From positions 12,708-76,707 of the forward strand of contig CAXRFT010000015.1 of assembly GCA_964230135.1 (NCBI GenBank): DNA of 64,000 nt, given 5' to 3'. Position 1 is the first letter of the stretch. The number at the start of each line of letters is the position of its first letter. The position numbers were made by a program, and so were the translations under genes. A model generated the notes under the pieces. The model did not search any database and was not told where the DNA came from. It saw nothing but the letters and a program-made list of their open reading frames with translations. Below are positions 35,040 to 59,573 of the stretch, in pieces. Source of the stretch: Porticoccaceae bacterium. GTDB lineage: Bacteria > Pseudomonadota > Gammaproteobacteria > Pseudomonadales > Porticoccaceae.

Positions 35040-35234
35040 AAACTCCTTTTAAGTTTTCCATAGTTATTTAGATTACTAACTTGGCCGAAAACTATACACG
35101 CCTATATAGTTATAATAAAGTGAGTGGCGTCAGAGAAAGAGACACCTCGGCACAGGCAAGCAATGCACAAGGATATAGTAAAGATGTGTGCATGCCTGCG
35201 GAGCGTCAGGATGATGGGAGAAACTCAGTCAATA

Positions 35235-42084: not shown

Positions 42085-42198
42085 AAATCTCTACAAACTC
42101 ATAGTTTTGCTCAGTGTGAAGGGTTAACATTTAATTTGGCATTGATAGTGTCATAATTTTTCGATACGCTTGTGAGATTGATTGATAGGATCACAGCC

Positions 42199-45326: not shown

Positions 45327-45998
45327 ATGGACTTTACTGCCTTTTCTGAATCTCGAAAGAGTGTTCGAGGTTTTCTTGACAAACCAGTATCCAAATCAAC
45401 CATTGACGAGATCATTAACACAGCTAAATGGGCGCCCTCATCTTACAATACACAAACCTGGCACATCCATGCTGTCACGGGCGATGTTCTAACTAAAATA
45501 CGTGAAGGTAACGTAAAAAATACCCTCGCTGGAAAACCTCATGTGCGTGATTTTCCCTACAAAGAAAAGTACGAGGGTGAACATCGTCAACGTCAAATAG
45601 ATGTCGCCATCCAGCTCTTCGAAGCTATGGGAATCGAACGCGACGACAAAGAAAAGCGCACTGACTGGATGCTGCGAGGATTCCGTCAATTCGATGCACC
45701 CGTGTCTCTTGTTCTGACCTACGACAAGTACCTGGAACCTGCGGCCATTAGTCATTTCGGCCTCGGCTCTTTGGCCTATGGCATTGTTCTCGCCGCCTGG
45801 GAACGAGGTATAGGTTGCGTCATTAATGGACAGGGCATTATGCAATCTGATGTGGTTCGCGAGCACGCGCAAATTCCCGACGACCAGAATATAATGATTT
45901 GCATTGCCATGGGCTACCCCGATGATAGTTTTGCTGCCAACGGCGTGCGCTCAGTACGCGCCGATAATAGTGACTTTGTCACCTATGTTGGTTTCTAA
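45327..45998 (+). CDS. Nitroreductase family protein
   Basis: Contains RKSVRGF.DKPV....I.EI...A.WAPS..N.Q.W, the nitroreductase N-terminus. 223 aa. Confidence 0.85.
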   Translation: MDFTAFSESRKSVRGFLDKPVSKSTIDEIINTAKWAPSSYNTQTWHIHAVTGDVLTKIREGNVKNTLAGKPHVRDFPYKEKYEGEHRQRQIDVAIQLFEAMGIERDDKEKRTDWMLRGFRQFDAPVSLVLTYDKYLEPAAISHFGLGSLAYGIVLAAWERGIGCVINGQGIMQSDVVREHAQIPDDQNIMICIAMGYPDDSFAANGVRSVRADNSDFVTYVGF

Positions 45999-46123
45999 AC
46001 CTCATTGAGTGCCGATTTATAAAGCTACTGTAACAATAAAAAACCCGGCGATGTTTGACCCATCGCTGGGTTGCCTATAATCTCTATGATTGATTTAAGC
46101 AGTCAACGAAATCAAGGCATGAG

Positions 46124-47065
46124 ATGAGTGAGTTCCCCAAATTTAGACAGGCTGATTACCCGACGTTGTATCTTGAGCAAACTGATCAAGATTTGTCTAA
46201 AAGTGCTCATCCCAGTCTTCGCTATGCCTATTTTAAAACCATTGCTAAAGGGGGTAAGTCCCTTATCCAGTCTTGCAAAGATCTGCATTTGGGACGCGTG
46301 GTTTGCTATAAGTCTTTGCGCTCAGAGTTTGCCAATGATCCCATTGAGCAAAAACGCCTGCTGCGCGAAGCGCGCATTTCCGCCATGTTGCAGCATCCAA
46401 ATACCATGCCCACCTATGAACTGGGACGGGATCGCCAAGGGCATTATTATTTCACCATGAAGCTGGTTCATGGCTACACCTTCAGAGAAATTATTAACTA
46501 CCGAGAGCGCTACGATCTCTCGCAGCTAATGGACATTTTAATTCAAGTGGCCTACGCCTTGGAATATGCCCACACCCATGGTGTGGTGCACCGCGATATC
46601 AAGCCTGAAAACATCTTAGTTGGGCCATTCGGAGAGGTCCTGCTACTGGACTGGGGATTGGCAAAAGTACGCAGTAAAGACGGAGACCTGAGCGATATCG
46701 AGATCGAGCCAACGGACGTTATGGATCAAAACAAAACCATGACCGGCTTCCAAAAACTCCAGGGAACCATTAGCTATATGTCGCCAGAGCAGATCAACAA
46801 AGACCCCAACATAGATGCTAGAACCGATATTTATAGCCTTGCCGCCTTGTTGTACGAGGGTTTATCTGGCCGCACACCGGCATCTGGTAACACCATGGAC
46901 GAATTATTGCAGAGCACATTGCACAGTACGTCACCGGATATTGCCGATATAAGCAGTATGCCACTACCCAAAGTCCAGGCCTCAACCATAATGCAATGTC
47001 TTGAAAAAAATCCCGATCAACGGGTTCAAAGCATTGCTGAAATGATAAGACTTTTAAAACAGTAA
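46124..47065 (+). CDS. Hanks-type serine/threonine protein kinase, catalytic domain only
   Basis: Contains the VCYKSL Lys, the catalytic loop HRDIKPENIL, DWGLAK (a DFG variant) and SYMSPEQ (APE-like). At 313 aa it has no TM segment or sensor domain. Confidence 0.86.
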   Translation: MSEFPKFRQADYPTLYLEQTDQDLSKSAHPSLRYAYFKTIAKGGKSLIQSCKDLHLGRVVCYKSLRSEFANDPIEQKRLLREARISAMLQHPNTMPTYELGRDRQGHYYFTMKLVHGYTFREIINYRERYDLSQLMDILIQVAYALEYAHTHGVVHRDIKPENILVGPFGEVLLLDWGLAKVRSKDGDLSDIEIEPTDVMDQNKTMTGFQKLQGTISYMSPEQINKDPNIDARTDIYSLAALLYEGLSGRTPASGNTMDELLQSTLHSTSPDIADISSMPLPKVQASTIMQCLEKNPDQRVQSIAEMIRLLKQ

Positions 47066-47074
47066 TCTTGTAAT

Positions 47075-47818
47075 TTAATTAGAAACCACTTCCACTAAAA
47101 CAAAGGATATATTGTCCTGTCCACCACAATCCAGTGCACGCTCCAAAAGCCTGTCTGCACAAGCGTCTAAACTGCTTTCCACACAGGCATATTCCAGCAA
47201 CAAAGGATCTGGAACACGATCTGTGAGCCCGTCAGTACACATTAGCAACAAGTCTCCTGATACCAGATTACTGGAGCCTGTATCTGGCTGAATCAACAAG
47301 ATGGATCCAACTTTTTGAGTCAGAATACTGGGTGCGCGACGATAAAGATCTGGCGCCAACTTGGGATCAATTTTACTGCGATCCAGGGTGTGATCTCTGG
47401 TCAACATCTGGATGGTATTGTCTTTTCGACTTATTCGGTAAATTCTTGAGTCACCCACCCAAGAGTAATGCAACTGATCGCCCAACAACATCATACAGCT
47501 AAGCGTTGTACCCATAGTCCGATACTTTTCTTCGTTGCGCTGGATGGCAATAATCGCTTCATTTGCATACTTCACCGCATTACTGATTTCGCGCCCTGGC
47601 TTTTCCAACCTACGGTATTCATCGACATTTTGCAGATACTCAACGCAAGCGTCCACCGCCAGTTGACTGGCTACTTCACCATATGCCTCACCACCCATCC
47701 CGTCAGCAACGGCTATTACCTGATTGGCCTCATCAATAACCAGCGCATCTTCATTATTGCGCCTGACTTTTCCAGTGTGGGTACGGGAACAGAAGTTGAG
47801 ATGAAAAACAGTGTCCAT
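47075..47818 (-). CDS. PP2C-family serine/threonine phosphatase
   Basis: Contains R.NNED, VADGMGGE, TDGLTD and GGQDNISFVLV. Confidence 0.88.
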   Translation of the reverse strand: MDTVFHLNFCSRTHTGKVRRNNEDALVIDEANQVIAVADGMGGEAYGEVASQLAVDACVEYLQNVDEYRRLEKPGREISNAVKYANEAIIAIQRNEEKYRTMGTTLSCMMLLGDQLHYSWVGDSRIYRISRKDNTIQMLTRDHTLDRSKIDPKLAPDLYRRAPSILTQKVGSILLIQPDTGSSNLVSGDLLLMCTDGLTDRVPDPLLLEYACVESSLDACADRLLERALDCGGQDNISFVLVEVVSN

Positions 47819-48026
47819 AAACAGCAGTGTAACCTAACTCGAGCGGGGTACAACAAACAAAATATCGTCCATCTTACCTAGGTGAAAAACTATTGCTCTA
47901 AGGACAATTATTTGATTATGATGCCAATGATTCGGTCTAACACCATTAACGGTCAAGGCCGTTCCAACTCGACAAGCTTGTGTACATCAATGTGCATTAA
48001 AAAAAGAATAATATGTTGGATAATCT

Positions 48027-49388
48027 ATGGGGTCGATCACTGAAGCAGCTCGTCAAACGCCTGTCATTCACCATACAGAGGTATTGGTGGTGGGCAGTGG
48101 TCCCGGTGGACTGGCGGCGGCAATTGCAGCGGCACGAGCAGGTGCTGAAACCACTTTACTGGAGCGCTACGGTTGTTTCGGTGGAAATCTTACCCAGGTA
48201 GGCGTGGAGGGAGTAGCCTGGTACCGTCACGAAAATACGGTGGACAGTGAAGGCATCGGTATTGAATTTGAACAGCGGGCCAAAGCCATGGGTGCTGCAA
48301 ATCCTGAACCCCAATCAAATAGCCATGCCATTGATGGTGAAGCCTTCAAGTACGTTGCTGATGTCTTGGTTGAAGAAGCAGGAATCACTCCTATGCTGCA
48401 CCGAACCATGGTTGCAGCCATTGTCGAGGGTGGTGTTATCAAGGGTGTCATTGTAGAGAGTAAGGCGGGTCGCGAAGCAATCTTGGCCCAGCGAGTGATC
48501 GACGCCACCGGTGATGCAGACATTGCCTACCGCGCCGGTGCTTTAGTGAAAAAAACACCAGTAGAGGACATGATGGCAGCATCGGTAATGTTTTCCATCA
48601 ACGGTGTCGATCGGCATCGCTTTATCGAAGACGTCAAAGCCAATGCTCATACCTATAGTGATTGGTGTGGGCCCGACTGGTCAATGCAGACCTCAGGGAA
48701 AGAAGACCAGATGTTTTCTCCCTATTTAAAGAAGCCCTTTGAAAAAGCCATTGCCTCTGGCCTGATCCCGGAAAACTTAAATACCATCACCGGAACCTGG
48801 GGTGCCATCAGTGAACAGGGTGATCTCAGCTATTTAAATCTCATTCACTTAGCTGGTTTAGACGCCACTAATCCTGATCATCTGACAAGAGGGGAAATTG
48901 AGGGACGCCGGCAAGCGATGCTCGCCATTGAGGCTCTAAAGAAATTCAATCCCGGCTGTGAAAATGCCAAATTGAGAAACTTTGGCATGACGCTCGGTGT
49001 TCGCGACACACGAAAAATCGACGCTATCTACAATATGACCGCAGAGGATGTGCGCAACCAGGGAAAATTTGATGATTCAATTGGCATATTCCCGGAGTTT
49101 ATCGACGGCTATGGCATCTTGATTCTGCCCACCACTGGTCGCTATTTTCAACTGCCCTATCGCGCCATGTTACCCAAGGGTGTAAAACATCTATTGGTGA
49201 CAGGGCGCAGTGTTGGCGGTGATCGCGATTCCCATGCAGCGGTGCGCAACATGATGTGTTGTGCGGTCAATGGCCAGGGGGCTGGAGTCGCTGCCGCCGT
49301 CTCAATCCGATCACAGGTAGACGTCGCCGAGGTCAATATAAAAGAAGTACAGAAAACACTGATTAGTCAGGGTGCACGGATTCAGTAG
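48027..49388 (+). CDS. FAD-dependent oxidoreductase (FAD_oxidored/GIDA-like fold), function unknown
   Basis: Contains VLVVGSGPGGLAAAIAAARAGA.T.LLER....GG and DATGDADIA. It is the first gene of the carnitine-type operon. Confidence 0.78.
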   Translation: MGSITEAARQTPVIHHTEVLVVGSGPGGLAAAIAAARAGAETTLLERYGCFGGNLTQVGVEGVAWYRHENTVDSEGIGIEFEQRAKAMGAANPEPQSNSHAIDGEAFKYVADVLVEEAGITPMLHRTMVAAIVEGGVIKGVIVESKAGREAILAQRVIDATGDADIAYRAGALVKKTPVEDMMAASVMFSINGVDRHRFIEDVKANAHTYSDWCGPDWSMQTSGKEDQMFSPYLKKPFEKAIASGLIPENLNTITGTWGAISEQGDLSYLNLIHLAGLDATNPDHLTRGEIEGRRQAMLAIEALKKFNPGCENAKLRNFGMTLGVRDTRKIDAIYNMTAEDVRNQGKFDDSIGIFPEFIDGYGILILPTTGRYFQLPYRAMLPKGVKHLLVTGRSVGGDRDSHAAVRNMMCCAVNGQGAGVAAAVSIRSQVDVAEVNIKEVQKTLISQGARIQ

Positions 49389-49446
49389 ATGATCAATTTA
49401 CCGGCTTTACAAAAACTCCTATTTTTCTCGATAAAAGAGGTCGCTC

Positions 49447-50355
49447 ATGCCCTTAAGTATAACTTCAGATGTCTTTATTACCTGTGCCATCACAGGATCT
49501 GGTAGCACCCAAGATCGCAGCGATAAAGTCCCGCGATCACCTGCACAAATTGCCGAAAGTGCCATTGCCGCTGCCCGTGCCGGAGCTGCCGTGGTTCACT
49601 GCCATGTGCGCGATCCAGAGACGGGCGTTCCCTCCAGGGATCCTAAACTTTACCGAGAGCTCACCGATCGTATCCGCGACTCAGACACTGATGTGGTGTT
49701 AAATCTCACCGCCGGAATGGGTGGTGATATGGTATTTGGCCCCCCCTCTGCGCCACTGCCTCTGCAGGCTGGCACCGACATGGGTAGCGCCGAGAGTCGC
49801 ATAGAACCCATTGCAGAGTGCTTACCGGAAATCTGCACGCTGGACTGTGGCACCATGAATTTTGCCGAAGCCGACTATGTCATGACCAACACCCCGGGAA
49901 TGTTGAGAGCCATGGGCAGTATGATGACCTCACTGGGTGTGAAACCTGAAATTGAAGCCTTTGACACAGGTCACCTTTGGTTTGCCCACCAGCTGGTTAA
50001 AGAGGGTGTTATTGATGATCCTGTACTGGTGCAACTTTGCATGGGCATACCCTGGGGTGCACCCAATGATCTAAACACCTTTATGGCCATGGTGAACAAC
50101 ATCCCCGCCAATTGGAACTGGTCCTCTTTTTCCATTGGTCGCGACCAAATGCCCTACGTTGCCGCCTCGGTTCTTGCCGGAGGAAACGTAAGAGTTGGTC
50201 TCGAAGATAATCTTTGGTTGAAAAAGGGTGTCCTGGCGACCAATGCTGATCTTGTTAACAAAGCCAGCAGCATTATTCACGGCATGGGAGCAAAATTGAT
50301 GGACCCGCAACAAGTTCGCAAGAAATTAGGTTTAACTAAGCGAGCGCCGAGATGA
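49447..50355 (+). CDS. BKACE family enzyme (3-keto-5-aminohexanoate cleavage-like; probable dehydrocarnitine cleavage enzyme)
   Basis: Contains ITCAITGS and the Zn ligands in VVHCHVRDPETG. The length is about 300 aa. It overlaps the downstream carnitine dehydrogenase gene by 4 nt (ATGA). Confidence 0.85.
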   Translation: MPLSITSDVFITCAITGSGSTQDRSDKVPRSPAQIAESAIAAARAGAAVVHCHVRDPETGVPSRDPKLYRELTDRIRDSDTDVVLNLTAGMGGDMVFGPPSAPLPLQAGTDMGSAESRIEPIAECLPEICTLDCGTMNFAEADYVMTNTPGMLRAMGSMMTSLGVKPEIEAFDTGHLWFAHQLVKEGVIDDPVLVQLCMGIPWGAPNDLNTFMAMVNNIPANWNWSSFSIGRDQMPYVAASVLAGGNVRVGLEDNLWLKKGVLATNADLVNKASSIIHGMGAKLMDPQQVRKKLGLTKRAPR

Positions 50356-51791
50356 ATTCAGTGGCAGAATCTGCACATCAGTCTACCTCTATGCCGTCAT
50401 CCTTTGCTGTCATCGGCGGCGGCGTCATCGGCGGTGGCTGGATTGCGCGATTTTTGGTCATGGGTTGCAATGTTAAGGTCTATGATCCCGACCCGCAGGC
50501 CGAACGAAAAATAAACCAAATCGTATCCAACGCACGGCGGTCGCTCCCGGGTTTATATGAGCATGTTCTACCAAAAGAAGGCACACTGCACATCTGCGAC
50601 AGTATTGAAGAAGCCGTGTCAGACGCTCAGTGGATTGGGGAATCAGTCCCCGAGCGTTTAGATGTAAAGCATCAAATCTTCAGAGAAATACAATGCCACT
50701 GCAAAGACGATGCCATTATCGCCTCATCGACATCCGGCTTTAAGCCATCACAATTACAGCAAGAATCATGCAATCCCGAACAAATTATTGTCGCCCATCC
50801 ATTCAATCCGGTGTATTTAATTCCCCTGGTTGAGCTGGTAGGAGACAGAGAAACTACAACTGCAGCTGCAAAAATCTTGTCACAACTGGGTATGCACCCA
50901 CTTACCCTGCGCAAAGAGATTGATGCGCATATTGCCGACCGACTGCTGGAGGCTGTGTGGCGTGAGGGTCTCTGGCTGATCAATGACGGTATTGCCACCA
51001 CCGCTGAGATCGATGATGTCATTCGCTATGGATTTGGTCTGCGTTGGGCTCAAATGGGTATGTTTGAAACCTATAGAATCGCTGGTGGCGAAGCCGGGAT
51101 GAAACATTTCATTGAACAATTTGGTCCGGCCTTGAAATGGCCCTGGACAAAACTTATGGATGTGCCTGAGCTGTCAGATGAATTGATCTCTGCCATAGCT
51201 AATCAATCCGATGAGCAATCTGGACAACACTCAATTAACGATCTTGAACAGATTCGAGATGACAATTTGGTTGCCATGATGAGGTCGCTCAAACTCAAAG
51301 ACTGGGCGGCGGGTGATCTACTTAACAAGGTTGATCATCGGCTGGAGGCCAGTGCAGTGCTGGCGTCTCAAACCCCCTATCAACGCAATAATGTGCAGAC
51401 CATCCACCGTGTCATTCCCAGCAGCTGGCTGGATTTTAATGGTCATATGAATGACAGTCACTACGCTGAAGTTTTCTCAAAAGCCAGTGACATTATTCTC
51501 AGGCGCTTAGGCGCAGATCCCAACTATGTGGCCAGAGGTTACAGCTATTTTACTGTGGACATGAAAATAGATTACATCGACGAATGCCATGCCGGTGATG
51601 AAGTTAAAGTCTTTACCAGTATCAAGCTGGCCGACGGTAAAAAGCTAGACCTATACCATGAGTTGAAAGATACCGCGGGTAACCTTCGCGCCACGGCCAG
51701 CCAATTTTTGCTGCATGTGGATCTTCAGTCTCGTAAGTCCTGCGAGCCAGTGGAGCCGCTGGCAACTCATTTGAAACGATTAAAAGACTAA
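50352..51791 (+). CDS. lcdH: L-carnitine dehydrogenase fused to a C-terminal hotdog thioesterase domain
   Basis: The N-terminal 3-hydroxyacyl-CoA-dehydrogenase Rossmann fold is FAVIGGGVIGGGWIARF. The C-terminal roughly 140 aa (WLDFNGHMNDSHYAEVFS...) resembles a 4HBT-type thioesterase. The gene context fits. Confidence 0.78.
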   Translation: MNSVAESAHQSTSMPSSFAVIGGGVIGGGWIARFLVMGCNVKVYDPDPQAERKINQIVSNARRSLPGLYEHVLPKEGTLHICDSIEEAVSDAQWIGESVPERLDVKHQIFREIQCHCKDDAIIASSTSGFKPSQLQQESCNPEQIIVAHPFNPVYLIPLVELVGDRETTTAAAKILSQLGMHPLTLRKEIDAHIADRLLEAVWREGLWLINDGIATTAEIDDVIRYGFGLRWAQMGMFETYRIAGGEAGMKHFIEQFGPALKWPWTKLMDVPELSDELISAIANQSDEQSGQHSINDLEQIRDDNLVAMMRSLKLKDWAAGDLLNKVDHRLEASAVLASQTPYQRNNVQTIHRVIPSSWLDFNGHMNDSHYAEVFSKASDIILRRLGADPNYVARGYSYFTVDMKIDYIDECHAGDEVKVFTSIKLADGKKLDLYHELKDTAGNLRATASQFLLHVDLQSRKSCEPVEPLATHLKRLKD

Positions 51792-51822
51792 ACAAACGTA
51801 TTGACAACATGGAGTCATCACC

Positions 51823-53001
51823 ATGCAAATACATAACAATATCGCTACCCCTGACAACCTTTACTGGCCTATAAGTGAATCTCTTATCTCAGTTCAAATC
51901 GTCAACAAATCTCTGATAGTTCACTGGAGCGATGGTCAACAATCGACGCTGCATCCTATCTGGCTGCGGGAAAACTGCTGTTGCCATAAATGTCTCAATC
52001 CAGTGACTCGAGAACATCTGGTGGACTTGCGCGACATACCGGCCGATATTAGACCTATATCAGCTGATGTTGACGAGCGAGGAGCTCTTGTGGTGATTTG
52101 GTCACATGAAAATCATCGCAGTCATTATAATCCCCACTGGCTTTATGCCCACAGTACCAACAGAGGATCTGAGAGGGATGATAAGATTAGACCATGGAAT
52201 ACCACTGATCTGCAGGAGCCGCTGAGTTTCAATACAGTGAACGGTATCATTGACGATGACGTCTTATATGAGGTGTTGTTAACCATCCTCCGCTATGGCG
52301 TAGCACGAGTACGGGCGCTTCCGGTAGATGAAAGACAAGTCGAAGATCTAGCGTTGCGCATAGGGCCCATAAGAGAAACCCACTTCGATCGCATTTTTGA
52401 CGTGGTTTCAAAGGCCGACAGTGACACACTTGCCAATACCAGTCACTATTTAGCTGCACACACAGATATACCAACACGGGAGTCACCTCCAGGAATTCAG
52501 TTACTACATTGCCGTATTGCTGAGGCCAAGGGTGGCCACAGCACGCTAACTGACGGATTTAAAGTTGCGATGGATATCAAACAACAATTTCCGGCCTACT
52601 ATAAGATTCTTACCACTGTGAAGTGGTGTCATGCCAACCGAGCTGGACCCACAGACTATCGCTGGGAAGCGCCGATCATCGGATTAGACCAGCAAGGTGA
52701 GCTCCGAGAGGTGCGGCTGTTGCCCTTCTCCAGAGCGCCACTTAAGGCCGACTACGATTACATGGATGACATCTACGCAGCGCTCAAATGTTTTATGGAG
52801 ATGGTTAATTCTCCCGAGTATCAAATGACCTTTCCATTCAAGGCTGGGGATCTAATTATGTTTGACAACCGCCGATTATTACATGGGCGAGGAGAGTTCT
52901 ACCCGAAAACCGGTGATAGAGCCCTGCGTGGCACCTATATTGAACGAGATGACGTGTTGTCAAAGATTCGGCAGATCGAACAGCAGCGTTGTCGATTATA
53001 A
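51823..53001 (+). CDS. Gamma-butyrobetaine dioxygenase-like (TauD/TfdA family with N-terminal DUF971 zinc domain)
   Basis: The N-terminal Zn cluster is NCCCHKC...H. The Fe(II) triad is AAHTDIP...LLHGR. Confidence 0.82.
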   Translation: MQIHNNIATPDNLYWPISESLISVQIVNKSLIVHWSDGQQSTLHPIWLRENCCCHKCLNPVTREHLVDLRDIPADIRPISADVDERGALVVIWSHENHRSHYNPHWLYAHSTNRGSERDDKIRPWNTTDLQEPLSFNTVNGIIDDDVLYEVLLTILRYGVARVRALPVDERQVEDLALRIGPIRETHFDRIFDVVSKADSDTLANTSHYLAAHTDIPTRESPPGIQLLHCRIAEAKGGHSTLTDGFKVAMDIKQQFPAYYKILTTVKWCHANRAGPTDYRWEAPIIGLDQQGELREVRLLPFSRAPLKADYDYMDDIYAALKCFMEMVNSPEYQMTFPFKAGDLIMFDNRRLLHGRGEFYPKTGDRALRGTYIERDDVLSKIRQIEQQRCRL

Positions 53002-53011
53002 AAGAAAGAAT

Positions 53012-53041
53012 AAAAAAGGGCGCCAAATAGGCGCCCTTTTT
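53012..53041. terminator. Bidirectional Rho-independent terminator (convergent BBOX-like gene / TBDR)
   Basis: AAAAAA-GGGCGCC-aaata-GGCGCCC-TTTTT, a perfect 7-bp GC stem flanked by A and T runs. Confidence 0.8.
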
Positions 53042-53055
53042 AAGTCCTAAAGAGC

Positions 53056-55536
53056 TTAGAACTTTAGGCCCACTCGGAACCCAAGGGTCCGTGGACGATT
53101 TGTCATGATACGCGCATCCCAGTTCACCGCATTGCGGAAAACTTCGCCACGCTCATCAAACAAGTTACGAACATACAGCTCGGCAGTCCAGGTATCCATA
53201 TCTTTACCCACTGCCACATTCATGATTTGGTAATCATCCTGTTTGAAACGCTTGGTAGGAATGGTTCCACCGTCATACAGATTATTGTATGAGGATCCAG
53301 TGTAGATATAGCTAGCCTGAGCAAACCAATTGGACTCTAACTCGTATCGCGAGGACAGATTCCATTTAGTCTTTGGCACTCTGGGTAAGGATGTACCTGA
53401 AGCGGCCGTGGGCGCATCCAAGCCACTGCTTTGATAGTAATCTTCACTCAGCTCAGCCTCGATATATGAGAAAGCTCCGGACAACGTCCAATTTTCAGCC
53501 AACATCGCTGTAAAATCTGCTTCTATACCATCCGACTTCGCCTGACCAATGTTGTACGTCAAGGTTACCGGTGATATCGAAGTGTCCAATCGAGAGAACT
53601 GGAAATCGTCCCAGTCTTGCATAAAGGCCGCAGCGTTAAATACCATTCGTCCATCCATCAATGAACCCTTCATACCGATCTCAAGAGAGGTCAAGAAATC
53701 CGGCACGAAATCACATCGGGCTCCAGTAGTATCGTCTCGTCCCTGGCCACCGTAATCAGCCTCATTGCCCACCGAACAGAAGCGGTTCAAACCACCGGGA
53801 CGGTAACCTTCACCCCAGGCCGTGTAGAGCATCAGATCATCGCTCATCGACCACTCTGCGGTTAGACGGTAAACCTCATCTTTCGATGCGGTAATGCGGT
53901 TAGCATCAGCACAGTCAGCGCCGTAGTTGTTGGTGGGCCTATAGTTTCCCGAGGCCTCTTGCGCAGCAGCACTAGGGCCACCGCCACAGGGCCACCAGAC
54001 AGTTCCAGAAAATCCATCGAGGTAGCTCTCAGCATCAAACTGTCGAGCACTGGCAGCTAACGTCAGGTTTTCCGTAACATCGTAGGCAATCTCACCAAAA
54101 AAAGCCTGTTCCTCATAACTTCTTCTGAAATCAGTTGTCCAGTAGATGTCTGGGCCATCAATGGCAGTTACCATACCCAGATCGGCTAAACCGAGCACAT
54201 GCCACTCAGCATCATCTCGGTTTTTAACGTCGACAGAGTAGTAGCCTGCCTGCCATCGGAAAGGTTTAGTTGGATCTGATGCATAGCGCAATTCTATGGT
54301 TTCACGCTGATAGTTGGCATGATCTTCGTAGAGAGTTCTTGGGTCTGAACAACCATAGTAGGCTGCGTAGCAAGAGTAGTAGGGCTGAACATAACCGGCA
54401 GAAACATAGAAGTCACTGTAGAGTGAATAATCCGCATCCACTTCATAATCACGATCTAAATCACCATAATTAAACGTCAGTGTACCGCCTGCAACATCGC
54501 CCTCTACTTTAAGAGAATACTGAGTCCACTCATCGTCAAGACTATCAGGTAACATTCTCATGACCTGAAGATCTCCCACTGTTGGATCATGATCCCAAAC
54601 ACCTTTTGACTCGAGGTCCTGATGCATGACCGATGCGGTGGCAGTCCAACTATCATTGAGATCCACACTAAGGGCAGCCCTAAAGCCCGTTGTATCTGCC
54701 GTATTGAAATTCTCCTCTGCAACATCACCTATATCACCTGAGGTATAGTTGTTGTAGGTAAAATCAGGCGCCATGGCCATAGCCTCTGCTTCGGTGGCGC
54801 CATCGGCCACTAGTGCATTTCTGATATAACCATGTTTAAAGGTATATTCACCTTGCACGTTATCGATAAAGCCTCCCTCGCGCTTTGAATAACCGACAAC
54901 GCGCAGAGCAGCTTTCTCAGTGAGCGGGATATTGACAAAACCCTCAACGGTTTCACCGAAATCGCCACTCTTTGGCTGACTTACATCCAGATTAAGCCCT
55001 GCAGAAAATGCAGTGGGATCTGGCTGATTAGTGATAATACGCATGGCACCAGACTGGGCATTTGCTCCGAACAGCGTACCCTGCGGACCAGCCAATACCT
55101 CGATACGCGCCACATCATAAATATGTGGATTGAGATATGCTCCAGTAGCAGTCACTGGTTGGTCATCGAGGTACACCGCAACACTAGGGTTTGCCCCCAA
55201 TGAGCTTTCGCCACCCGATGAGATGCCACGGATGTAAACGTTACCGTTACCAGGGCCGAGGGTTATGTAACTGACATTTGGTAACATTGTTACATAATCT
55301 TCTAAATCAGTAATGTTTAAATCACTCAAAGTCTCCCCACCCAGCACAGAGATTGCCATGGGAATATCTTGAGCGCTTTCTGTTCTCTTCGTCGCTGTAA
55401 CGATAACTTCTTCGACTTGCTGTGCCAGTGCGATGGGCGTCATGCCTACCGACAGTGCAGCAACCATTGCAGCAAGGGGTTTTGACGACCACCGCTTGCC
55501 TTGTGATGATTCACGCTTGTCTCCTGAATTAATCAT
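53056..55536 (-). CDS. TonB-dependent receptor (about 826 aa)
   Basis: Signal peptide ...MVAALSVGMTPIALAQQ, TonB box/plug EEVIVTATKR.ESAQDIPMAISV and a terminal Phe (VGLKF). The start is trimmed to MINSGDK ('cat' at 55534-55536). Confidence 0.9.
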   Translation of the reverse strand: MINSGDKRESSQGKRWSSKPLAAMVAALSVGMTPIALAQQVEEVIVTATKRTESAQDIPMAISVLGGETLSDLNITDLEDYVTMLPNVSYITLGPGNGNVYIRGISSGGESSLGANPSVAVYLDDQPVTATGAYLNPHIYDVARIEVLAGPQGTLFGANAQSGAMRIITNQPDPTAFSAGLNLDVSQPKSGDFGETVEGFVNIPLTEKAALRVVGYSKREGGFIDNVQGEYTFKHGYIRNALVADGATEAEAMAMAPDFTYNNYTSGDIGDVAEENFNTADTTGFRAALSVDLNDSWTATASVMHQDLESKGVWDHDPTVGDLQVMRMLPDSLDDEWTQYSLKVEGDVAGGTLTFNYGDLDRDYEVDADYSLYSDFYVSAGYVQPYYSCYAAYYGCSDPRTLYEDHANYQRETIELRYASDPTKPFRWQAGYYSVDVKNRDDAEWHVLGLADLGMVTAIDGPDIYWTTDFRRSYEEQAFFGEIAYDVTENLTLAASARQFDAESYLDGFSGTVWWPCGGGPSAAAQEASGNYRPTNNYGADCADANRITASKDEVYRLTAEWSMSDDLMLYTAWGEGYRPGGLNRFCSVGNEADYGGQGRDDTTGARCDFVPDFLTSLEIGMKGSLMDGRMVFNAAAFMQDWDDFQFSRLDTSISPVTLTYNIGQAKSDGIEADFTAMLAENWTLSGAFSYIEAELSEDYYQSSGLDAPTAASGTSLPRVPKTKWNLSSRYELESNWFAQASYIYTGSSYNNLYDGGTIPTKRFKQDDYQIMNVAVGKDMDTWTAELYVRNLFDERGEVFRNAVNWDARIMTNRPRTLGFRVGLKF

Positions 55537-55692
55537 TTCGTACACCCTTTTGATATCAACTATTTTTAAATAATTATTATGTTTCACCTCTACCAACGAT
55601 ACCACAAGAATGTTGGCATGAACATATTTACATAATCCATCGACAAAATCTTAAAAAGAGAGACTACACTCTTGGTGTGACAAAAATAAGAC

Positions 55693-55708
55693 ATGTTGAC
55701 GTCAACAT
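55693..55708. promoter_or_regulatory. Perfect 16-bp palindrome upstream of the TBDR gene (candidate operator)
   Basis: ATGTTGAC|GTCAACAT sits 157-172 bp upstream of the TBDR start, in the 260-bp gap after the sulfotransferase gene. Confidence 0.4.
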
Positions 55709-55796
55709 CCCTCGATTAGAATCAATGGAGAAATAATCAGTGCTTTTTTAATGGTCTAGTCACAGAGGGAAGTTCACTGATAGCTCAACCAACGAT

Positions 55797-57788
55797 TTAT
55801 AAAATGTCCTGGTAGTATTCTCCAAGCACATCCTTTAATGAAGTCAGCTGACTATCGTAGTTCTGCCACTGGTTGAGCCCGGATTGAAAAATTGGCTGTC
55901 GAACTTGTTCCGAGCTGGCAGAGCGAACGGCTCTATTGTTCTCGTGGAAATTCACACACTGCTGCTGAAAAGGAAGATCACAGTATTCCAGTAGGCGTAC
56001 CACCTGAGTTTCTAAATCCTGTACAACATCCTCATAATTAACCGTCAAGCTATATCCGGGAAGCACTTCGTCTAAATGTTTCATAAGACGAAGATAGTCG
56101 ACATAGTAACGACCAATATCTTCCAGACTGTAGGTAAACGCCTGTCCCTCTGCGAATAGCTGTTTAAAATTGGCAAAACAAGCCGCCATCGGCGCCCTGC
56201 GTGCGTCGATAATCGATGCATTGGGCAAAATTGCACGAATCAATGGAATATGCATGAAATTATTAGGCAACTTATCAATAAAGCGTTTTTCGTGCTTGCG
56301 ATGAGCAGCGCAGGCATCTAGATATTGTTGACCCAAAGCGATCCGCTGAGACTCACTCAGGTCGGACAAAAGCTGCGGGTAACGCCTTGCATCCCCGCGC
56401 TTTCTAGTACCCTCTAGTTGGGCCGCAATACGGCTAATGAAGTGGAGTTCTGCAGTGGCCTCCACATCGGAGTGACTGGCCAAAATCTGCTCCAACAGGG
56501 TAGATCCAGAGCGAGGTAATCCAAGGATAAAAATGGGACTGTTATCTTGATGTCCGCCGGTGTCAAATCCAGACATAAAGGGTGCATCGCAAACGCTAAT
56601 AATATGGTCAACCCGCCGGGTAGTCTCATCGGCATCATAACCACTGAACTGATGTTTAATTTTGTTACCTAACTCATAGGCCTTATAAGAACCTACGTAA
56701 TCTTTTTTGTCTTCAAGAGCCTTACCCAATGCGAAGGCCAAATGATACTTATCTTCGCCATCAGTACTCTCCGACGCCAGTTGTGCTCGCATGGCTGTTA
56801 CTTCACTCTCCGTAAAGGTCACCGTTTTAAGGTTGGCCAAACTCCAATAGGCATCGCCATGCTCCGGATCACTGGCAATAGCGCGACGATAAACCTCCGC
56901 AGCTCGATCGCCTCGACCTGCATAACGCAGTGAGTGACCATAACTGGTTAAAATACTGACATCATCAGGAATTCTGGCGATCACATCCTCGTAGATCTTG
57001 TGGGCCTCATCGTAGCGACCAGCACTAGACGCTACCGCAGCATGCAGTGTCTTGTAACCTACATTGTTGTTATCTAACTTCAACAGTTGATTGACTTGAG
57101 TCATAGCGGCATCAAATTTATCCTGCTTTGACAAGGCCAAGGCATATTTGTGCCGCGCCATGGTGTAGTCTGGAGCAAGCGTTAAACATCGTTCATACAG
57201 TTGCACAGCATCTTTCATCAGACCCAGTTTGTATCCAATGTCCGCAAGCAGTCTGATGGCGTTGACGTCTGTGGGATGTAGTCGAAGATACTCTCGGCAG
57301 ATGCCTTCAGCCACACCGATACGACCAGAAGCGAACAGTTCAGATGCCTGTTTCAGAGCAGGATCAACATCCTTTGCTAAATGAGTTCTTGCATGTGCCT
57401 GAGCCGCTCCATCTGCGTCGCCCTTGGTGATAAGAACTTCTGACAATACCCGCCACGCACTTACAAACCCAGCATCTAATTTCACTGCACGGCGCAGAGC
57501 ACTCTCAGCAGGTGCTAGCTGATCATTAGCGTAATAGGCCAGCCCTAACTCGTAGTGACCCTGGGGCACATTGGGCTGCAGCGCGATAAATGCAGTCAGC
57601 TGATGAATAGCCTCGGTTTGAAAACCATTGAGCCTCAGGGCCACACCTAATAAAAACACTGCCGGAGGATGCCCCGCATCCAGAGCAATAGCTCTACGAG
57701 CAAGAGCTAAGGCTTCGGCAATCTCCCCCTTCTGCAGAGAAGATCGAGTATCTTCAACCAACTGCGCCACACTATGTTTATTTTGCAT
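55797..57788 (-). CDS. TPR-repeat protein fused to a sulfotransferase domain
   Basis: The N-terminal roughly 400 aa consists of repeated TPR-like helices. The C-terminal domain carries the PAPS 5'-PSB loop LGLPRSGSTLLEQIL and a downstream IIDARR.P....FANF block. There is no signal peptide. Confidence 0.85.
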   Translation of the reverse strand: MQNKHSVAQLVEDTRSSLQKGEIAEALALARRAIALDAGHPPAVFLLGVALRLNGFQTEAIHQLTAFIALQPNVPQGHYELGLAYYANDQLAPAESALRRAVKLDAGFVSAWRVLSEVLITKGDADGAAQAHARTHLAKDVDPALKQASELFASGRIGVAEGICREYLRLHPTDVNAIRLLADIGYKLGLMKDAVQLYERCLTLAPDYTMARHKYALALSKQDKFDAAMTQVNQLLKLDNNNVGYKTLHAAVASSAGRYDEAHKIYEDVIARIPDDVSILTSYGHSLRYAGRGDRAAEVYRRAIASDPEHGDAYWSLANLKTVTFTESEVTAMRAQLASESTDGEDKYHLAFALGKALEDKKDYVGSYKAYELGNKIKHQFSGYDADETTRRVDHIISVCDAPFMSGFDTGGHQDNSPIFILGLPRSGSTLLEQILASHSDVEATAELHFISRIAAQLEGTRKRGDARRYPQLLSDLSESQRIALGQQYLDACAAHRKHEKRFIDKLPNNFMHIPLIRAILPNASIIDARRAPMAACFANFKQLFAEGQAFTYSLEDIGRYYVDYLRLMKHLDEVLPGYSLTVNYEDVVQDLETQVVRLLEYCDLPFQQQCVNFHENNRAVRSASSEQVRQPIFQSGLNQWQNYDSQLTSLKDVLGEYYQDIL

Positions 57789-57887
57789 AGTTCTCTAGTG
57801 CCCTTTTGAAAGAAAGCTTTTAAAACGCCACTGCCTCAAAATAGTAATACCAATGTGAAATCTATATCTGAGGTCTATGGCTAACAA

Positions 57888-59573
57888 CTACTGCCCTCGG
57901 ACAGCATTCCTCTGTCGCTGTCGCTCCTGCCAATGCTGATCGACAAAATAGTCGAACAGTGCCGGATCGCTGAGTTGTCTACCCCTAATCAGATCAGCGC
58001 CACGTTCGGCCACCATCATCGTCGGCGCATTCAAATTTCCATTGGGAATAGTCGGAAAAACCGATGAGTCAATGACGCGCAAGCGGTCTAGACCATGTAC
58101 CTTTAACTCCGGGTCAACCACCGCCATCGCGTCAGTTCCCATTTTACAGGAGCACGACGGGTGATAGGCACTGTCCACTGCCTGCCGAATGAACGCATCG
58201 ATCTGCTCATCAGTCTGCACCTCTTCCAACGGTTGAATGACTTCACCACGGAAAGGGTCCATAGCCGGCTGCTGCATGATCTCACGGGTTAATCGAACAC
58301 AATCGCGAAAGCCTTGCCGATCTTCCTCTGTTGCCAGATAATTAAACTGGATTTGGGGGTGCTGCCTTACGTCAGCTGAAACGGCCTTGATAAAGCCCCG
58401 GCTAGTGGGCTTGTTGTGTCCTGCATGCACCTGAAAACCGTGGCCTTTGAAAGCAACCGAACCATCATAAGTGATGGCGCCAGGAAGGAAATGATACTGA
58501 ATATCCGGCCACTTGACTCCCGCTCTGGAACGGATAAAGGCACAGGCCTCAAAATGATTGGTACGGCCAAGACCGGTCTTGAATAACAACCACCGGGCTC
58601 CGATCAATGCCTTGCTGAACAATCCCAGCTTACCATTCAATGAAATCGGCTGTTTGCACCTATATTGGAAATTAAACTCCAAGTGATCCTGCAAATTTTC
58701 ACCGACACCGGGTAGCTGATGCACAAGCTCAATTCCCGCTGCGTCGAGAGTCTCTTTGGCACCTACACCCGATACTTGTAAAAGGTGGGGTGACCCCACT
58801 GCACCGGCACTGAGAATAATTTCCTTGTCGGCATTAAACTGTCGTAGCTCACCATTCACTTGGCACTGCACACCGGTGGCAGTTTTACCCTCGAACAGGA
58901 TTTTGGTTACCAACGCCCGTTTGATGATACGGAGATTGGAACGAGGTTTGGCATGCCTGAGATAAGCATGACTACTGGACGCTCGGACACCTCCATCGAC
59001 ATTCATAAACTTCTGGCCAAACCCCTCTTGCTGATAACCGTTATAATCTTGGGTTTCATCATAGCCCGCCTCTACCCCAGCTTTTATAAAGGCTCGGTAA
59101 AGAGGGTTGGCCATGTCATTGCCTCCGCTGACAACCACTGGGCCTTTATCTCCAGCATAATCAGAAGAAACACACTGATGACTCTCCAATTTCTTAAAAT
59201 AAGGTAGACAATTCTGGTAATTCCAGCCCCTCGCTCCTGCCGCCTCCCATTCATCAAAGTCCAGCGCGTGACCTCGCACATAGACCATTCCATTAATGGA
59301 GGAAGAACCTCCAACAACTTTGCCGCGCGGACAGTTCATTTCGCGATTATCAAGATGAGGTTCGGGCAATGACTGGAAACCCCAATTGTATTTTTTGGTA
59401 TTCATGGGGATACCTAAAGCAGTGGGCATACGGATAAAGATGCTTTTATCACCACCCCCGTACTCCAACAACAAAACACTGCAATTGGAATCCTCACTGA
59501 GACGTGACGCGACAATAGCGCCCGCAGAACCAGCGCCCACTACTATATAATCGTAATTCTGATGATTCCCCAT
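57888..59573 (-). CDS. betA: Choline dehydrogenase (GMC oxidoreductase)
   Basis: The N-terminus is [22 protein letters not shown]. It is collinear with E. coli BetA in long blocks ([23 protein letters not shown]....WP.IQYHFLP, REIM.QPA.D..RG.EI.P......TDEQ.D.F.R......YHP..CKMG). Confidence 0.88.

Follow-up and report, generated by a model that had tools for sequence, protein, structure and literature searches.

The carnitine-type operon in this stretch of Porticoccaceae DNA (64,000 nucleotides, hereafter the window) is probably composite, combining a self-sufficient carnitine module with a mobile accessory flavoprotein that serves a further compound of the same nutritional class. The operon and its surroundings contain the following features.

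45327-45998, plus strand: nitroreductase-family flavoprotein (PF00881)
47075-47818, minus strand: PP2C gene (ORF and Pfam)
47908-47922, plus strand: conserved 15-nt element TTATTTGATTATGAT (motif comparison upstream of the flavoprotein gene)
48027-49388, plus strand: PF12831 FAD-dependent oxidoreductase, the flavoprotein, 453 aa (ORF and Pfam)
49447-50355, plus strand: BKACE, 302 aa (PF05853 at 328 bits, HCHVRD motif)
50352-51791, plus strand: carnitine 3-dehydrogenase (LcdH) fused to a 4HBT-type thioesterase, 479 aa (NF005716)
51823-53001, plus strand: GBBH-like Fe(II)/2-oxoglutarate dioxygenase with an N-terminal zinc domain, 392 aa (GBBH-like_N and TauD)
53013-53041, no strand: bidirectional intrinsic terminator (12-bp stem, A-run and T-run)
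53056-55605, minus strand: TonB-dependent receptor, TBDR (Pfam)
55797-57788, minus strand: TPR-sulfotransferase, SulfoT (Pfam)

The four plus-strand genes were found as an earlier note on this DNA had described them, with intergenic distances of 58, -4 and 31 nt by ORF coordinates (the last 4 nt of the BKACE gene overlap the dehydrogenase gene) and a bidirectional terminator at the end. This terminator, AAAAAGGGCGCC-TATTT-GGCGCCCTTTTT at 53013-53041, has 7 GC pairs in its 12-bp stem, a loop of 5 nt, A5 before and T5 after. Because the stem is flanked by an A-run and a T-run, it should be able to act both ways, and it is predicted to be common to the operon and the convergent TonB-receptor gene. 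The PP2C gene does diverge from the operon, across a spacer of 208 nt. The gene order given earlier had to be corrected: it is flavoprotein, BKACE, dehydrogenase-thioesterase, dioxygenase, and therefore the first enzyme of the pathway is the last to be encoded. The host is a marine SAR92-type bacterium of the family Porticoccaceae.

In the proposed scheme, the GBBH-like dioxygenase would hydroxylate gamma-butyrobetaine, or a trimethylammonium compound close to it, to give L-carnitine, which the NAD-dependent dehydrogenase domain would oxidise to 3-dehydrocarnitine. BKACE would then use acetyl-CoA to cleave 3-dehydrocarnitine to betainyl-CoA and acetoacetate, and the fused thioesterase would release glycine betaine from betainyl-CoA. 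The best-supported part of this scheme is the pair formed by BKACE and the fused LcdH/thioesterase, which sequence evidence places on the known route from L-carnitine to glycine betaine, as had been proposed. The fused protein matches NF005716 (carnitine 3-dehydrogenase) over residues 16-477 of 479, its 682 bits exceeding the cut-off of 592, and has the Pfam domains 3HCDH_N (19-180), 3HCDH (194-260) and 4HBT_2 (358-466); the last of these is the likely site of betainyl-CoA hydrolysis. The fusion itself, singled out in the earlier note, is present but not special, being the standard length and architecture of NF005716. The HxHxRD zinc site expected of BKACE reads HCHVRD. Every NCBIfam equivalog scores below its cut-off against BKACE, and gene context suggests its substrate: BKACE adjoins LcdH in all relatives compared. 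BKACE and LcdH/thioesterase are kept as one block in eight Porticoccaceae loci, and the block that also has GBBH is kept in L003, L007, L008, L012, L013, L085 and L086.

The dioxygenase is probably a trimethylammonium-compound hydroxylase, judging by its sequence. It resembles human BBOX1 (PDB 3O2G) and TIGR02409 (GBBH) in its N-terminal zinc domain of three Cys and one His, its HxD...H iron triad and its C-terminal Arg, and the Cys-x-Cys-x2-Cys...His and HxD...H residues align with BBOX1. However, TIGR02409, although the best NCBIfam match, scores only 303 bits against a cut-off of 414.75, while three genomes of the same order hold bona fide members at 421-438 bits; the TmpA equivalog scores 275 bits (cut-off 400). 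The BBOX1 positions Asn191, Tyr194 and Asn292, which are substrate-contact residues (PMC4497603), read Thr, Asn and Leu here, and the motif DTLANT stands where bona fide GBBH has SNAYT. Against the PDB, the dioxygenase scores equally with BBOX1, TmpA and DfmD; the latter two, which act on 2-trimethylaminoethylphosphonate, are thus as similar to it as BBOX1 is. Because the GBBH and TmpA cut-offs are missed and three substrate-contact residues are lost, gamma-butyrobetaine is a reading from context, and the substrate may be another compound.

The reported lack of AraC and TetR regulators holds among the window ORFs scanned, from 31 kb to 64 kb, but a GbdR-like gene lies on another contig of the genome (G000:C16:5651-6640; 434.6 bits, cut-off 480). 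A DJ-1/PfpI ORF at 42172-43056 was considered as a GbdR remnant and rejected, since it has no HTH domain.

The 15-nt element at 47908-47922, ahead of the flavoprotein gene, may be a promoter or an operator for the operon. It lies about 105 nt before the flavoprotein start and is the sole match in the window at one mismatch or fewer; the genome has one more. Allowing 0-2 mismatches, the motif ATATTTGATTATGAT is present 49-107 nt ahead of the flavoprotein gene in six loci (L001, L003, L007, L008, L011 and L013), in each of which BKACE follows the flavoprotein, and it was not found at the remaining 74 of the 80 species loci compared. The gap between flavoprotein and BKACE genes, 58 nt in the window and 27 nt in L012, has no terminator-like site, and the only promoter-like hexamers in it would, by our reading, overlap the BKACE ribosome-binding site. 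The flavoprotein gene is therefore probably co-transcribed with BKACE and the downstream genes.

The flavoprotein is a cytoplasmic member of a very conserved, uncharacterised orthologue group that crosses phyla, with 66-98% identity across Gammaproteobacteria, Labrys, Ruegeria and Ilumatobacter. It matches PF12831 (FAD_oxidored) at 285 bits, carries the GSGPGG and DATGDAD motifs noted earlier, and reaches the cut-off of no NCBIfam model. Neither curated families nor the literature nor solved structures were found to name it or a relative, in agreement with the claim that it has no place in the known route. The best folds for its AF2 model (pLDDT 78, pTM 0.85) are FixC of the Fix/EtfABCX system (PDB 7KOE; Z 19.0, 314 residues aligned) and geranylgeranyl-reductase (GGR)-like flavoproteins (Z 18.5, 290 residues), followed by halogenases or UbiI at Z 16-17. 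Identity to the FixC and GGR-like proteins is 16-17%, and the window has no adjacent FixA, FixB or FixX genes. These matches to the predicted model are not specific: FixC and GGR types lead halogenases, UbiI and DAO-type oxidases by no more than 2-4 Z units, so the fold class points to no function.

The distribution of the flavoprotein is patchy: it was found in 10 of the 251 genomes in an even sample of the order over 57 families. LcdH is present in 8 of these 10 genomes and in 3 of the 241 others, a raw contrast that overstates the association, because genomes within one family are non-independent. At the family level, the four flavoprotein-positive families all fall among the seven with LcdH (hypergeometric probability about 9e-5 by our own arithmetic). 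In 5 of the 10 genomes, LcdH lies within 12 kb of the flavoprotein. Gene islands recur as well: the flavoprotein stands with SulfoT, LcdH/thioesterase, a GbdR-like regulator and GMC in L089, with GDPD, NPP, GMC, BCCT-like, LcdH, BKACE and GBBH-like genes in L090, and with GDPD, LcdH/thioesterase and two GBBH-like genes in L048. Elsewhere it is also found near GMC/ALDH genes, MFS/BCCT transporters and esterases. The suggested link to quaternary-amine catabolism is thus sustained.

This link is not an obligate one. When the neighbourhoods of the 80 species loci were compared, the flavoprotein adjoined BKACE/lcdH in only seven, with other contexts in 73, so that it is not always tied to these genes. 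The sister genomes G001 and G003 have a block of BKACE, LcdH/thioesterase, GBBH, TBDR and SulfoT without it; their flavoprotein gene is at a separate locus, where its neighbours are an Xsc-like TPP enzyme, Pta and a further SulfoT/TBDR pair. Conversely, SAR86 single-cell genomes and one Arenicella genome have the flavoprotein, and LcdH was not found in them; the SAR86 assemblies, at only 1.3-1.4 Mb, could be incomplete. The flavoprotein is not obligate for the known carnitine route.

A composite operon would accommodate these observations. The sequence data establish the gene identities at the level of families, the conservation of the module and the figures for distribution and co-occurrence; the substrates, the co-transcription and the chemistry of the flavoprotein are readings built on them. 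The orthologue group would be horizontally mobile and belong to an accessory gene pool for scavenging quaternary-amine and other onium compounds; in this sub-lineage, its gene would have been inserted between the promoter-like element and BKACE. The flavoprotein, dispensable for the core route, would most likely oxidise or otherwise redox-convert another small compound, taken up by BCCT or MFS carriers.

The carnitine tie could be indirect, since linkage of the flavoprotein to SulfoT/TBDR is at least as strong as that to LcdH: a SulfoT copy lies within 12 kb in 6 of the 10 genomes, and SulfoT or TBDR is nearby in about 15 of the 80 loci, from several lineages. It is possible, if rather unlikely, that the flavoprotein belongs functionally to TBDR/TPR-sulfotransferase cassettes, and that it came to stand before BKACE only because both modules dock next to such cassettes. 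Paralogous SulfoT/TBDR pairs stand beside the flavoprotein in L002, L089 and L092; SulfoT is on the same strand, 58 bp upstream, in L089, while in L002 an AspH-like cupin, SulfoT and TBDR come after the flavoprotein. The window genome also holds a 30% paralogue of the flavoprotein, followed by paralogous SulfoT and TBDR genes (L087). However, TPR-sulfotransferases are common, being encoded in 61 of the 251 genomes, some of which have four copies or more, and their association is therefore less specific than that of LcdH with its background of 3/241. Many flavoprotein loci (SAR86, Arenicella, Labrys) have no SulfoT/TBDR pair within 8 kb, and a pair also adjoins BKACE-LcdH-GBBH in L085 and L086, where the flavoprotein is absent, so the two readings are not exclusive. 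Both the flavoprotein and the carnitine module repeatedly have such a pair as neighbour; a functional tie is putative.

A distinctly doubtful proposal is that the flavoprotein is a dehydrogenase or oxidase of small secondary or tertiary amines, X-CH2-N(CH3)n, whose aldehyde product X-CHO is used by a neighbouring enzyme, making it a PF12831 analogue of PbfB/C/D. Methylated taurine, methylated 2-aminoethylphosphonate and sarcosine- or dimethylglycine-like compounds would be candidate substrates. In different lineages, enzymes that use aldehydes of this kind are indeed encoded close by on the same strand: four loci have malate synthase (glyoxylate) immediately upstream, and an Xsc-like TPP enzyme with Pta (sulfoacetaldehyde) precedes the flavoprotein in L002, L004, L006 and L015, in a stretch with a MocR-type regulator and no aminotransferase. 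GMC and ALDH genes are nearby in about ten loci, and DAO-type amine oxidases align with the AF2 model at Z 15-16. By the established chemistry of flavin amine oxidases, however, quaternary amines cannot be oxidised in this way, and 66-88% identity across these contexts makes four different substrates unlikely. The window genome lacks Xsc, and two SoxB-like genes and one DMGDH-like gene are present in it already. There is precedent for FAD enzymes replacing transaminases in such clusters (PMC10590968), but the Pbf enzymes concerned belong to PF01266, to which the flavoprotein has no match, its best folds being of FixC/GGR types.

The earlier note's own proposal, in which a stereoisomer or analogue enters the operon's pathway directly through the flavoprotein, now appears improbable. 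Conversion of D-carnitine to 3-dehydrocarnitine, of crotonobetaine to or from gamma-butyrobetaine, or of a sulfonium analogue might be guessed at. The position of the gene as first in the operon, in the same order in seven Porticoccaceae loci, and the co-occurrence with LcdH are consistent with direct feeding, and the motifs flanking the FAD site resemble, by our reading and by partial N-terminal NCBIfam matches, C=C oxidoreductases of the fumarate-reductase/KstD type. Yet structures of the fumarate-reductase type align over the FAD domain only (219-227 residues), the sister genomes retain the pathway with no flavoprotein in the module, some genomes have the flavoprotein without LcdH, and its presence and that of GBBH form no complementary pattern.

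Finally, it is very improbable that the flavoprotein acts as the oxygenase in a two-component system, hydroxylating or otherwise oxygenating its substrate with reduced flavin from a nitroreductase-family neighbour. In favour of this, L001 and L025 have such a gene immediately upstream (gaps of 221 nt and 32 nt), the distant L070 and L078 have one immediately downstream, touching or overlapping (53-54% identity), genome co-occurrence is 6/10 against 8/241, and the best folds include flavin-dependent halogenases and UbiI-type hydroxylases. Against it, four of the six genomes with both genes carry them on different contigs, a nitroreductase gene is missing near the flavoprotein in most loci, and by established chemistry flavin hydroperoxides do not hydroxylate unactivated aliphatic carbons.

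The composite operon can be compared with several known systems. In Pseudomonas aeruginosa, the thioesterase of the carnitine route is a separate gene, whereas that of the window is fused as in NF005716. The window resembles cdhCAB (LcdH-BKACE-thioesterase) of that species in its NAD-dependent LcdH of the 3-hydroxyacyl-CoA-dehydrogenase type, its BKACE partner and its 4HBT thioesterase; it differs in having no CdhR regulator, CaiX binding protein or DhcAB genes, and in adding the GBBH-like gene and the PF12831 flavoprotein to the operon. The P. aeruginosa route to glycine betaine is summarised in PMC12482172.

The same enzyme set has been described in the glycine betaine genomic island of Arctic SAR11 (mBio 2025, PMC12421898), also marine, where carnitine dehydrogenase, BKACE, gamma-butyrobetaine-dioxygenase-like genes, choline dehydrogenase and ALDH share one neighbourhood. 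Its glycerophosphodiester phosphodiesterase has a counterpart in the relatives L048 and L090. By contrast, the 17 genes listed for the island include no FAD_oxidored-type flavoprotein, TonB receptor or TPR-sulfotransferase, its thioesterase (ACOT) is encoded separately, and an ABC system, rather than BCCT, serves for uptake (PMC12421898).

For the flavoprotein, the comparison is with PbfB, PbfC and PbfD (iScience 2023, PMC10590968). These are amine oxidoreductases of PF01266 (the DAO family), unlike the PF12831 protein of the window. Both are recurrent accessory flavoproteins of small-zwitterion catabolic clusters, where the Pbf enzymes widen the substrate range, and both share a patchy distribution and horizontal spread.

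Among the major labile nitrogen and carbon compounds of seawater are carnitine, gamma-butyrobetaine, choline and glycine betaine. The operon concerned with them here lies in a genome of 2.38 Mb that is 96% complete and has Porticoccaceae/SAR92 genomes as its nearest relatives. Its four plus-strand open reading frames, with gaps of 58, -4 and 31 nt, were verified as the earlier note had described them. The same is true of the bidirectional terminator, a 12-bp GC-rich hairpin with A5/T5 flanks between the dioxygenase gene and the convergent TonB-receptor gene, and all motifs quoted in that note were found in the translations. The features are as follows.

47908-47922, upstream of the flavoprotein gene: conserved 15-nt element, kept only where BKACE follows the flavoprotein
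48027-49388, plus strand: flavoprotein, a PF12831 FAD-dependent oxidoreductase of 453 aa
49447-50355, plus strand: BKACE enzyme
50352-51791, plus strand: LcdH/TE, carnitine 3-dehydrogenase fused to a 4HBT-type thioesterase
51823-53001, plus strand: GBBH-like dioxygenase
53013-53041: bidirectional terminator
53056-55605, minus strand: TonB-dependent receptor (TBDR)
55797-57788, minus strand: TPR-sulfotransferase

The BKACE and LcdH/TE genes overlap by 4 nt and are paired in every relative examined. LcdH/TE scores 682.2 bits against NF005716 (cut-off 592), with residues 16-477 on model positions 5-474 of 495, and consists of 3HCDH_N (residues 19-180), 3HCDH (194-260) and, last, the hot-dog thioesterase domain 4HBT_2 (358-466). 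It is predicted from its sequence to carry out both NAD-dependent L-carnitine oxidation and betainyl-CoA hydrolysis. The dehydrogenase-thioesterase fusion to which the earlier note drew attention is present, but it is unremarkable: the NCBIfam model is built on this very domain order, and therefore there is no novelty in it. BKACE matches PF05853 at 327.8 bits over residues 9-296, and its HxHxRD zinc-site motif reads VVHCHVRDPETG in the translation. All four NCBIfam equivalogs for this family score below their cut-offs, and the dehydrocarnitine-cleaving subgroup has no curated model. The putative specificity for 3-dehydrocarnitine is read solely from the 4-nt overlap and the constant pairing with LcdH. 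The chemistry of carnitine dehydrogenase and BKACE is summarised in PMC12482172.

The identification of the fourth gene as a gamma-butyrobetaine dioxygenase holds in part. The protein has GBBH-like_N and TauD domains, and it aligns with His202, Asp204 and His347 of human BBOX1, with the 2-oxoglutarate Arg, and with the zinc-site residues Cys38, Cys40, Cys43 and His82 (numbering counted off the PDB alignment). However, it scores 303.2 bits against TIGR02409, under the cut-off of 414.75, while three homologues, found in three genomes of the same order, pass with 420.7-437.6 bits. It is also under the cut-off for TmpA (NF049936; 275.4 bits against 400). No TmpB partner is encoded nearby; the sole HD protein of the window (35124-36443; DUF3391 plus HD_5) is 15 kb off in another transcription unit. 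In the PDB, the best matches are nearly equal, namely DfmD (160 bits), TmpA (153 bits) and human BBOX1 (150 bits), all of which act on trimethylammonium compounds. In BBOX1, Asn191 and Asn292 bind the substrate carboxylate and Tyr194 belongs to the aromatic cage (PMC4497603). The window protein has Thr, Leu and Asn at the positions of Asn191, Asn292 and Tyr194, respectively. Its motif is DTLANT, as opposed to SNAYT or NTAAYT in bacterial members above the TIGR02409 cut-off, and the Asn292 region is Leu-Pro throughout the Porticoccaceae clade. The equivalents of Asn191 and Tyr194 are lost in the window and in three related loci (L003, L007, L012), and retained, as DSNAYT, in four others (L008, L013, L085, L086). 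Both variants adjoin LcdH and BKACE. The split may, judging by these residues, mark a shift in substrate. Because the linkage to LcdH and BKACE is constant, L-carnitine is the most economical product, and gamma-butyrobetaine is favoured as the substrate by a narrow margin over even chances.

The flavoprotein and BKACE genes are likely co-transcribed, to judge from the layout: no terminator-like site was found in the 58-nt gap before BKACE, and in our reading this gap is too short for a promoter plus leader. Among relatives the spacer (49389-49446 in the window) varies from 27 to 131 nt and is unconserved. The conserved block in the upstream region (47819-48026) has the form ATATTTTA-TTCTCTATT-N6-ATATTTGATTAT. 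The 15-nt element was rejected as the mark of a regulon, having one other site in the genome at up to one mismatch. The idea that the flavoprotein gene had been inserted behind the BKACE promoter of the sister genomes was dropped, as the upstream regions give no convincing alignment. A search of 46000-54000 against Rfam gave no match. Only three public RNA runs contain parts of this stretch (shares of 0.05-0.37). One oligo-dT metatranscriptome yields short identical contigs within the flavoprotein and dioxygenase genes, and the sole contig that spans the junction of flavoprotein and BKACE belongs to a relative and stems from what is probably a DNA run.

The earlier note had pointed to the absence of a regulator. 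Among the window ORFs scanned, there is indeed no AraC regulator with a DJ-1/PfpI-type N-domain, but the same genome encodes a GbdR-like protein on contig C16 (NF052371, 434.6 bits against a cut-off of 480). It is 62% identical to the GbdR-like AraC regulator found inside a related island (L089), and may act in trans on the window genes. On this 6.7-kb contig (G000:C16:1-6692), the gene stands beside genes for a methyl-THF:corrinoid methyltransferase-like protein and a RamA/AcsV-like corrinoid reductive activase. This gene set probably serves the demethylation of glycine betaine by an MtgB-type system. The window itself has a DJ-1/PfpI-family ORF (42172-43056) with a hydrophobic N-terminus and no DNA-binding domain; a decayed GbdR was rejected for it, since BLASTP against the GbdR-like DJ-1-type domain gives an E of 0.018 over 45 residues.

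The first gene was said to have no role in the known scheme, and this stands: no curated family, structure or literature names its reaction. The flavoprotein matches PF12831 (FAD_oxidored) at 285.1 bits, above the gathering score, with residues 18-445 on model positions 1-416 of 416, and none of the NCBIfam models comes near its cut-off. The PF01266 DAO domain is absent from the eight families that match at E<=0.001. The amine oxidoreductases PbfB, PbfC and PbfD are defined on PF01266 (PMC10590968); therefore, the flavoprotein is not one of these enzymes. Sequence and profile searches of the PDB matched only the first ~170 residues, which form the FAD-binding region, and mostly residues ~10-70. 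An AF2 model (pLDDT 78, pTM 0.85) scores highest with FixC (7KOE chain G, Z 19.0) and a geranylgeranyl-reductase-like protein (Z 18.5); FasV, halogenases and UbiI follow at Z 16-18, and DAO-type oxidases at Z 15-16. The list runs on without a break, FixC being only ~0.5 Z over the next unrelated family, and Foldseek and VIA-align likewise return generic two-domain flavoprotein folds. No ETF or ferredoxin-like gene lies next to the flavoprotein gene. The ESM Atlas holds only clusters of 'putative FAD-dependent oxidoreductase', and a literature search on PF12831 yielded no name for this protein. Searches on combinations of carnitine, flavoprotein, nitroreductase, sulfotransferase and TonB brought nothing relevant, and a paper on DMSP in SAR92 mentions neither FAD, carnitine nor betaine.

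The flavoprotein is both highly conserved and patchily distributed. Among its best 120 clusters (drawn at 90%), homologues are 76-98% identical, and some clusters hold hundreds of sequences, up to 1368 in a single cluster. Relatives occur in 183 species genomes, the best 80 of which show 66-89% identity and include Labrys, Ruegeria and Ilumatobacter; the mean column identity over 20 diverse members is 81%. Within the order the gene is rare (10 of 251 evenly drawn genomes from 57 families, and one of three further genomes of the window's genus). Such conservation in a gene of scattered occurrence is in keeping with an accessory gene that spreads by transfer.

Its neighbourhood varies between lineages. 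The flavoprotein is not always linked to BKACE and lcdH: it directly precedes BKACE in seven of 80 species loci, all of them Porticoccaceae. In sister Porticoccaceae, genes for a symporter of the sodium:alanine type, a MocR-type regulator, an Xsc-like TPP enzyme and Pta lie upstream, and an AspH-like cupin gene lies downstream along with those of a TPR-sulfotransferase and a TBDR. In four of these loci (L002, L004, L006, L015), the upstream genes make up a sulfoacetaldehyde-type cluster with the flavoprotein 0.3-2 kb downstream; no taurine aminotransferase or TauXY was found in the fetched stretch. The SAR86 context consists of YdjM-like, tyrosine-phosphatase-like and LCM-methyltransferase genes, and that of Arenicella of an M1 peptidase and a molybdopterin enzyme. 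In Steroidobacteraceae-like genomes, an MFS carrier lies directly 3' of the flavoprotein, often together with malate synthase upstream, ALDH and GMC oxidoreductase genes in the vicinity, and a TBDR/sulfotransferase pair. Four high-GC gammaproteobacterial genomes (L055, L056, L058, L068) have malate synthase immediately 5' on the same strand, which hints at glyoxylate as a pathway product there; the first three have the MFS carrier immediately 3'.

Close same-strand neighbours of the flavoprotein gene (65 neighbours, SAR86 and window types left out)
MFS: 7
PAF-AH/PETase-like hydrolase: 5
Malate synthase: 4
Beta-lactamase family: 3
Nitroreductase: 3
FAD-linked oxidase: 3
GMC: 2
Arylsulfotransferase: 2

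A nitroreductase-family gene (45327-45998 in the window) adjoins the flavoprotein in L001 and L025, and lies directly downstream of it in L070 and L078, at 53-54% identity. The two co-occur in six of ten flavoprotein-positive genomes against 8 of 241 others, mostly unlinked, and the nitroreductase-family protein could at most be a possible redox partner.

Two sister genomes (G001, G003) have the order BKACE, LcdH/TE, GBBH, TBDR and sulfotransferase with no leading flavoprotein and keep their own copy elsewhere; the flavoprotein is therefore dispensable for the module. At the level of genomes, the association is strong. A homologue of LcdH (E<=1e-100) is present in 8 of 10 flavoprotein-positive genomes and in 3 of 241 negative ones. 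Of the 57 families, seven are LcdH-positive, and these include all four that have the flavoprotein (f1, f6, f37, f53); our own arithmetic gives a hypergeometric probability of ~9e-5 for this. Ten further flavoprotein-positive genomes from other lineages include seven with LcdH; the other three, a pair of SAR86 assemblies of small size and a genome of Arenicella, lack it.

The two also meet in quaternary-amine scavenging islands. L089 (f37) has a TBDR and a sulfotransferase, then, after a gap of 58 bp, the flavoprotein, which is followed by BCCT-like, PAF-AH-like hydrolase, LcdH/TE, GbdR-like AraC regulator and GMC genes. In L090 (f53), the flavoprotein is found among PhyH, a beta-lactamase-family hydrolase, BCCT-like, GMC, MFS and an NPP phosphodiesterase, along with a 2OG oxygenase, GDPD, LcdH, BKACE and a GBBH-like gene. 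In the Halieaceae locus L048, LcdH/TE and GDPD precede the flavoprotein, and a beta-lactamase-family gene and GMC follow it. The flavoprotein is a real, widespread enzyme that is statistically tied to carnitine-type catabolic islands. Tentatively, and with the balance of probability somewhat against it, we propose that it is a new enzyme in the breakdown of quaternary amines or onium compounds in sea and soil, which would open a route for an abundant compound, outside present schemes, together with a BCCT or MFS carrier. The TonB-receptor/TPR-sulfotransferase pair possibly takes part. Candidate substrates are a methylated amino-sulfonate or amino-phosphonate, a betaine-lipid head group and a carnitine analogue. 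Such a route would account for the 66-98% conservation and the spread by transfer among SAR92, SAR86, Arenicella, Steroidobacteraceae, Labrys, Ruegeria and Ilumatobacter.

The main rival reading is that the flavoprotein belongs to sulfotransferase/TonB-receptor cassettes, and it is retained because these associations recur. TPR-sulfotransferase homologues occur in 10 of 10 flavoprotein-positive genomes; 51 of 241 others also have them, frequently as multiple copies. In 6 of the 10, the flavoprotein has such a copy within 12 kb. A second locus of the window genome (L087, G000:C36:18000-33714) has a 30%-identical flavoprotein paralogue of 451 aa among three GcvT-family and two amine-oxidase-like genes, followed by paralogues of the sulfotransferase and the receptor. 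The carnitine module is itself joined to such a pair in L085 and L086.

Of the 251 genomes of the order, 61 encode TPR-sulfotransferases, and four or more copies in one genome are common. On the minus strand of the window (53056-59573), a betA-like GMC oxidoreductase, the sulfotransferase and the TonB receptor are co-directional, at distances of 99 and 191 nt. GMC genes also stand beside sulfotransferase/TBDR pairs in L089, L090 and L092.

A further reading fares less well. The Xsc/Pta context in sister Porticoccaceae suggests that the flavoprotein yields X-CH2-CHO aldehydes from methylated amines. However, the window genome has no Xsc homologue, which also led us to reject a general taurine-oxidising partner of Xsc, and it already has homologues of sarcosine and dimethylglycine oxidases (two SoxB-like genes and a DAO+GCV_T protein), so that the flavoprotein does not fill an absent step of this kind. 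Substitution for GBBH was discarded, as the two show no complementary pattern of presence and absence across genomes.

The flavoprotein is the sharper target: one orthologue group, abundant in ocean metagenomes, without known reaction, structure or curated family, which co-occurs with carnitine dehydrogenase far over background and recurs in osmolyte-scavenging islands. Its reaction, once assigned, would close a gap in the turnover of osmolytes or onium compounds in sea and soil, and would annotate thousands of genes now labelled 'FAD-dependent oxidoreductase' or, in error, 'thiazole synthase'. A lesser lead is the GBBH-like enzyme with its altered pocket (DTLANT versus SNAYT). Having the PF12831 flavoprotein at its head makes this operon a lineage-specific variant. 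The operon core is an ordinary module, a new member of a known pathway and only one more example of its route. In Arctic SAR11, a genomic island has been described that combines carnitine dehydrogenase and BKACE with a gamma-butyrobetaine-dioxygenase-like gene, choline dehydrogenase and ALDH (PMC12421898).
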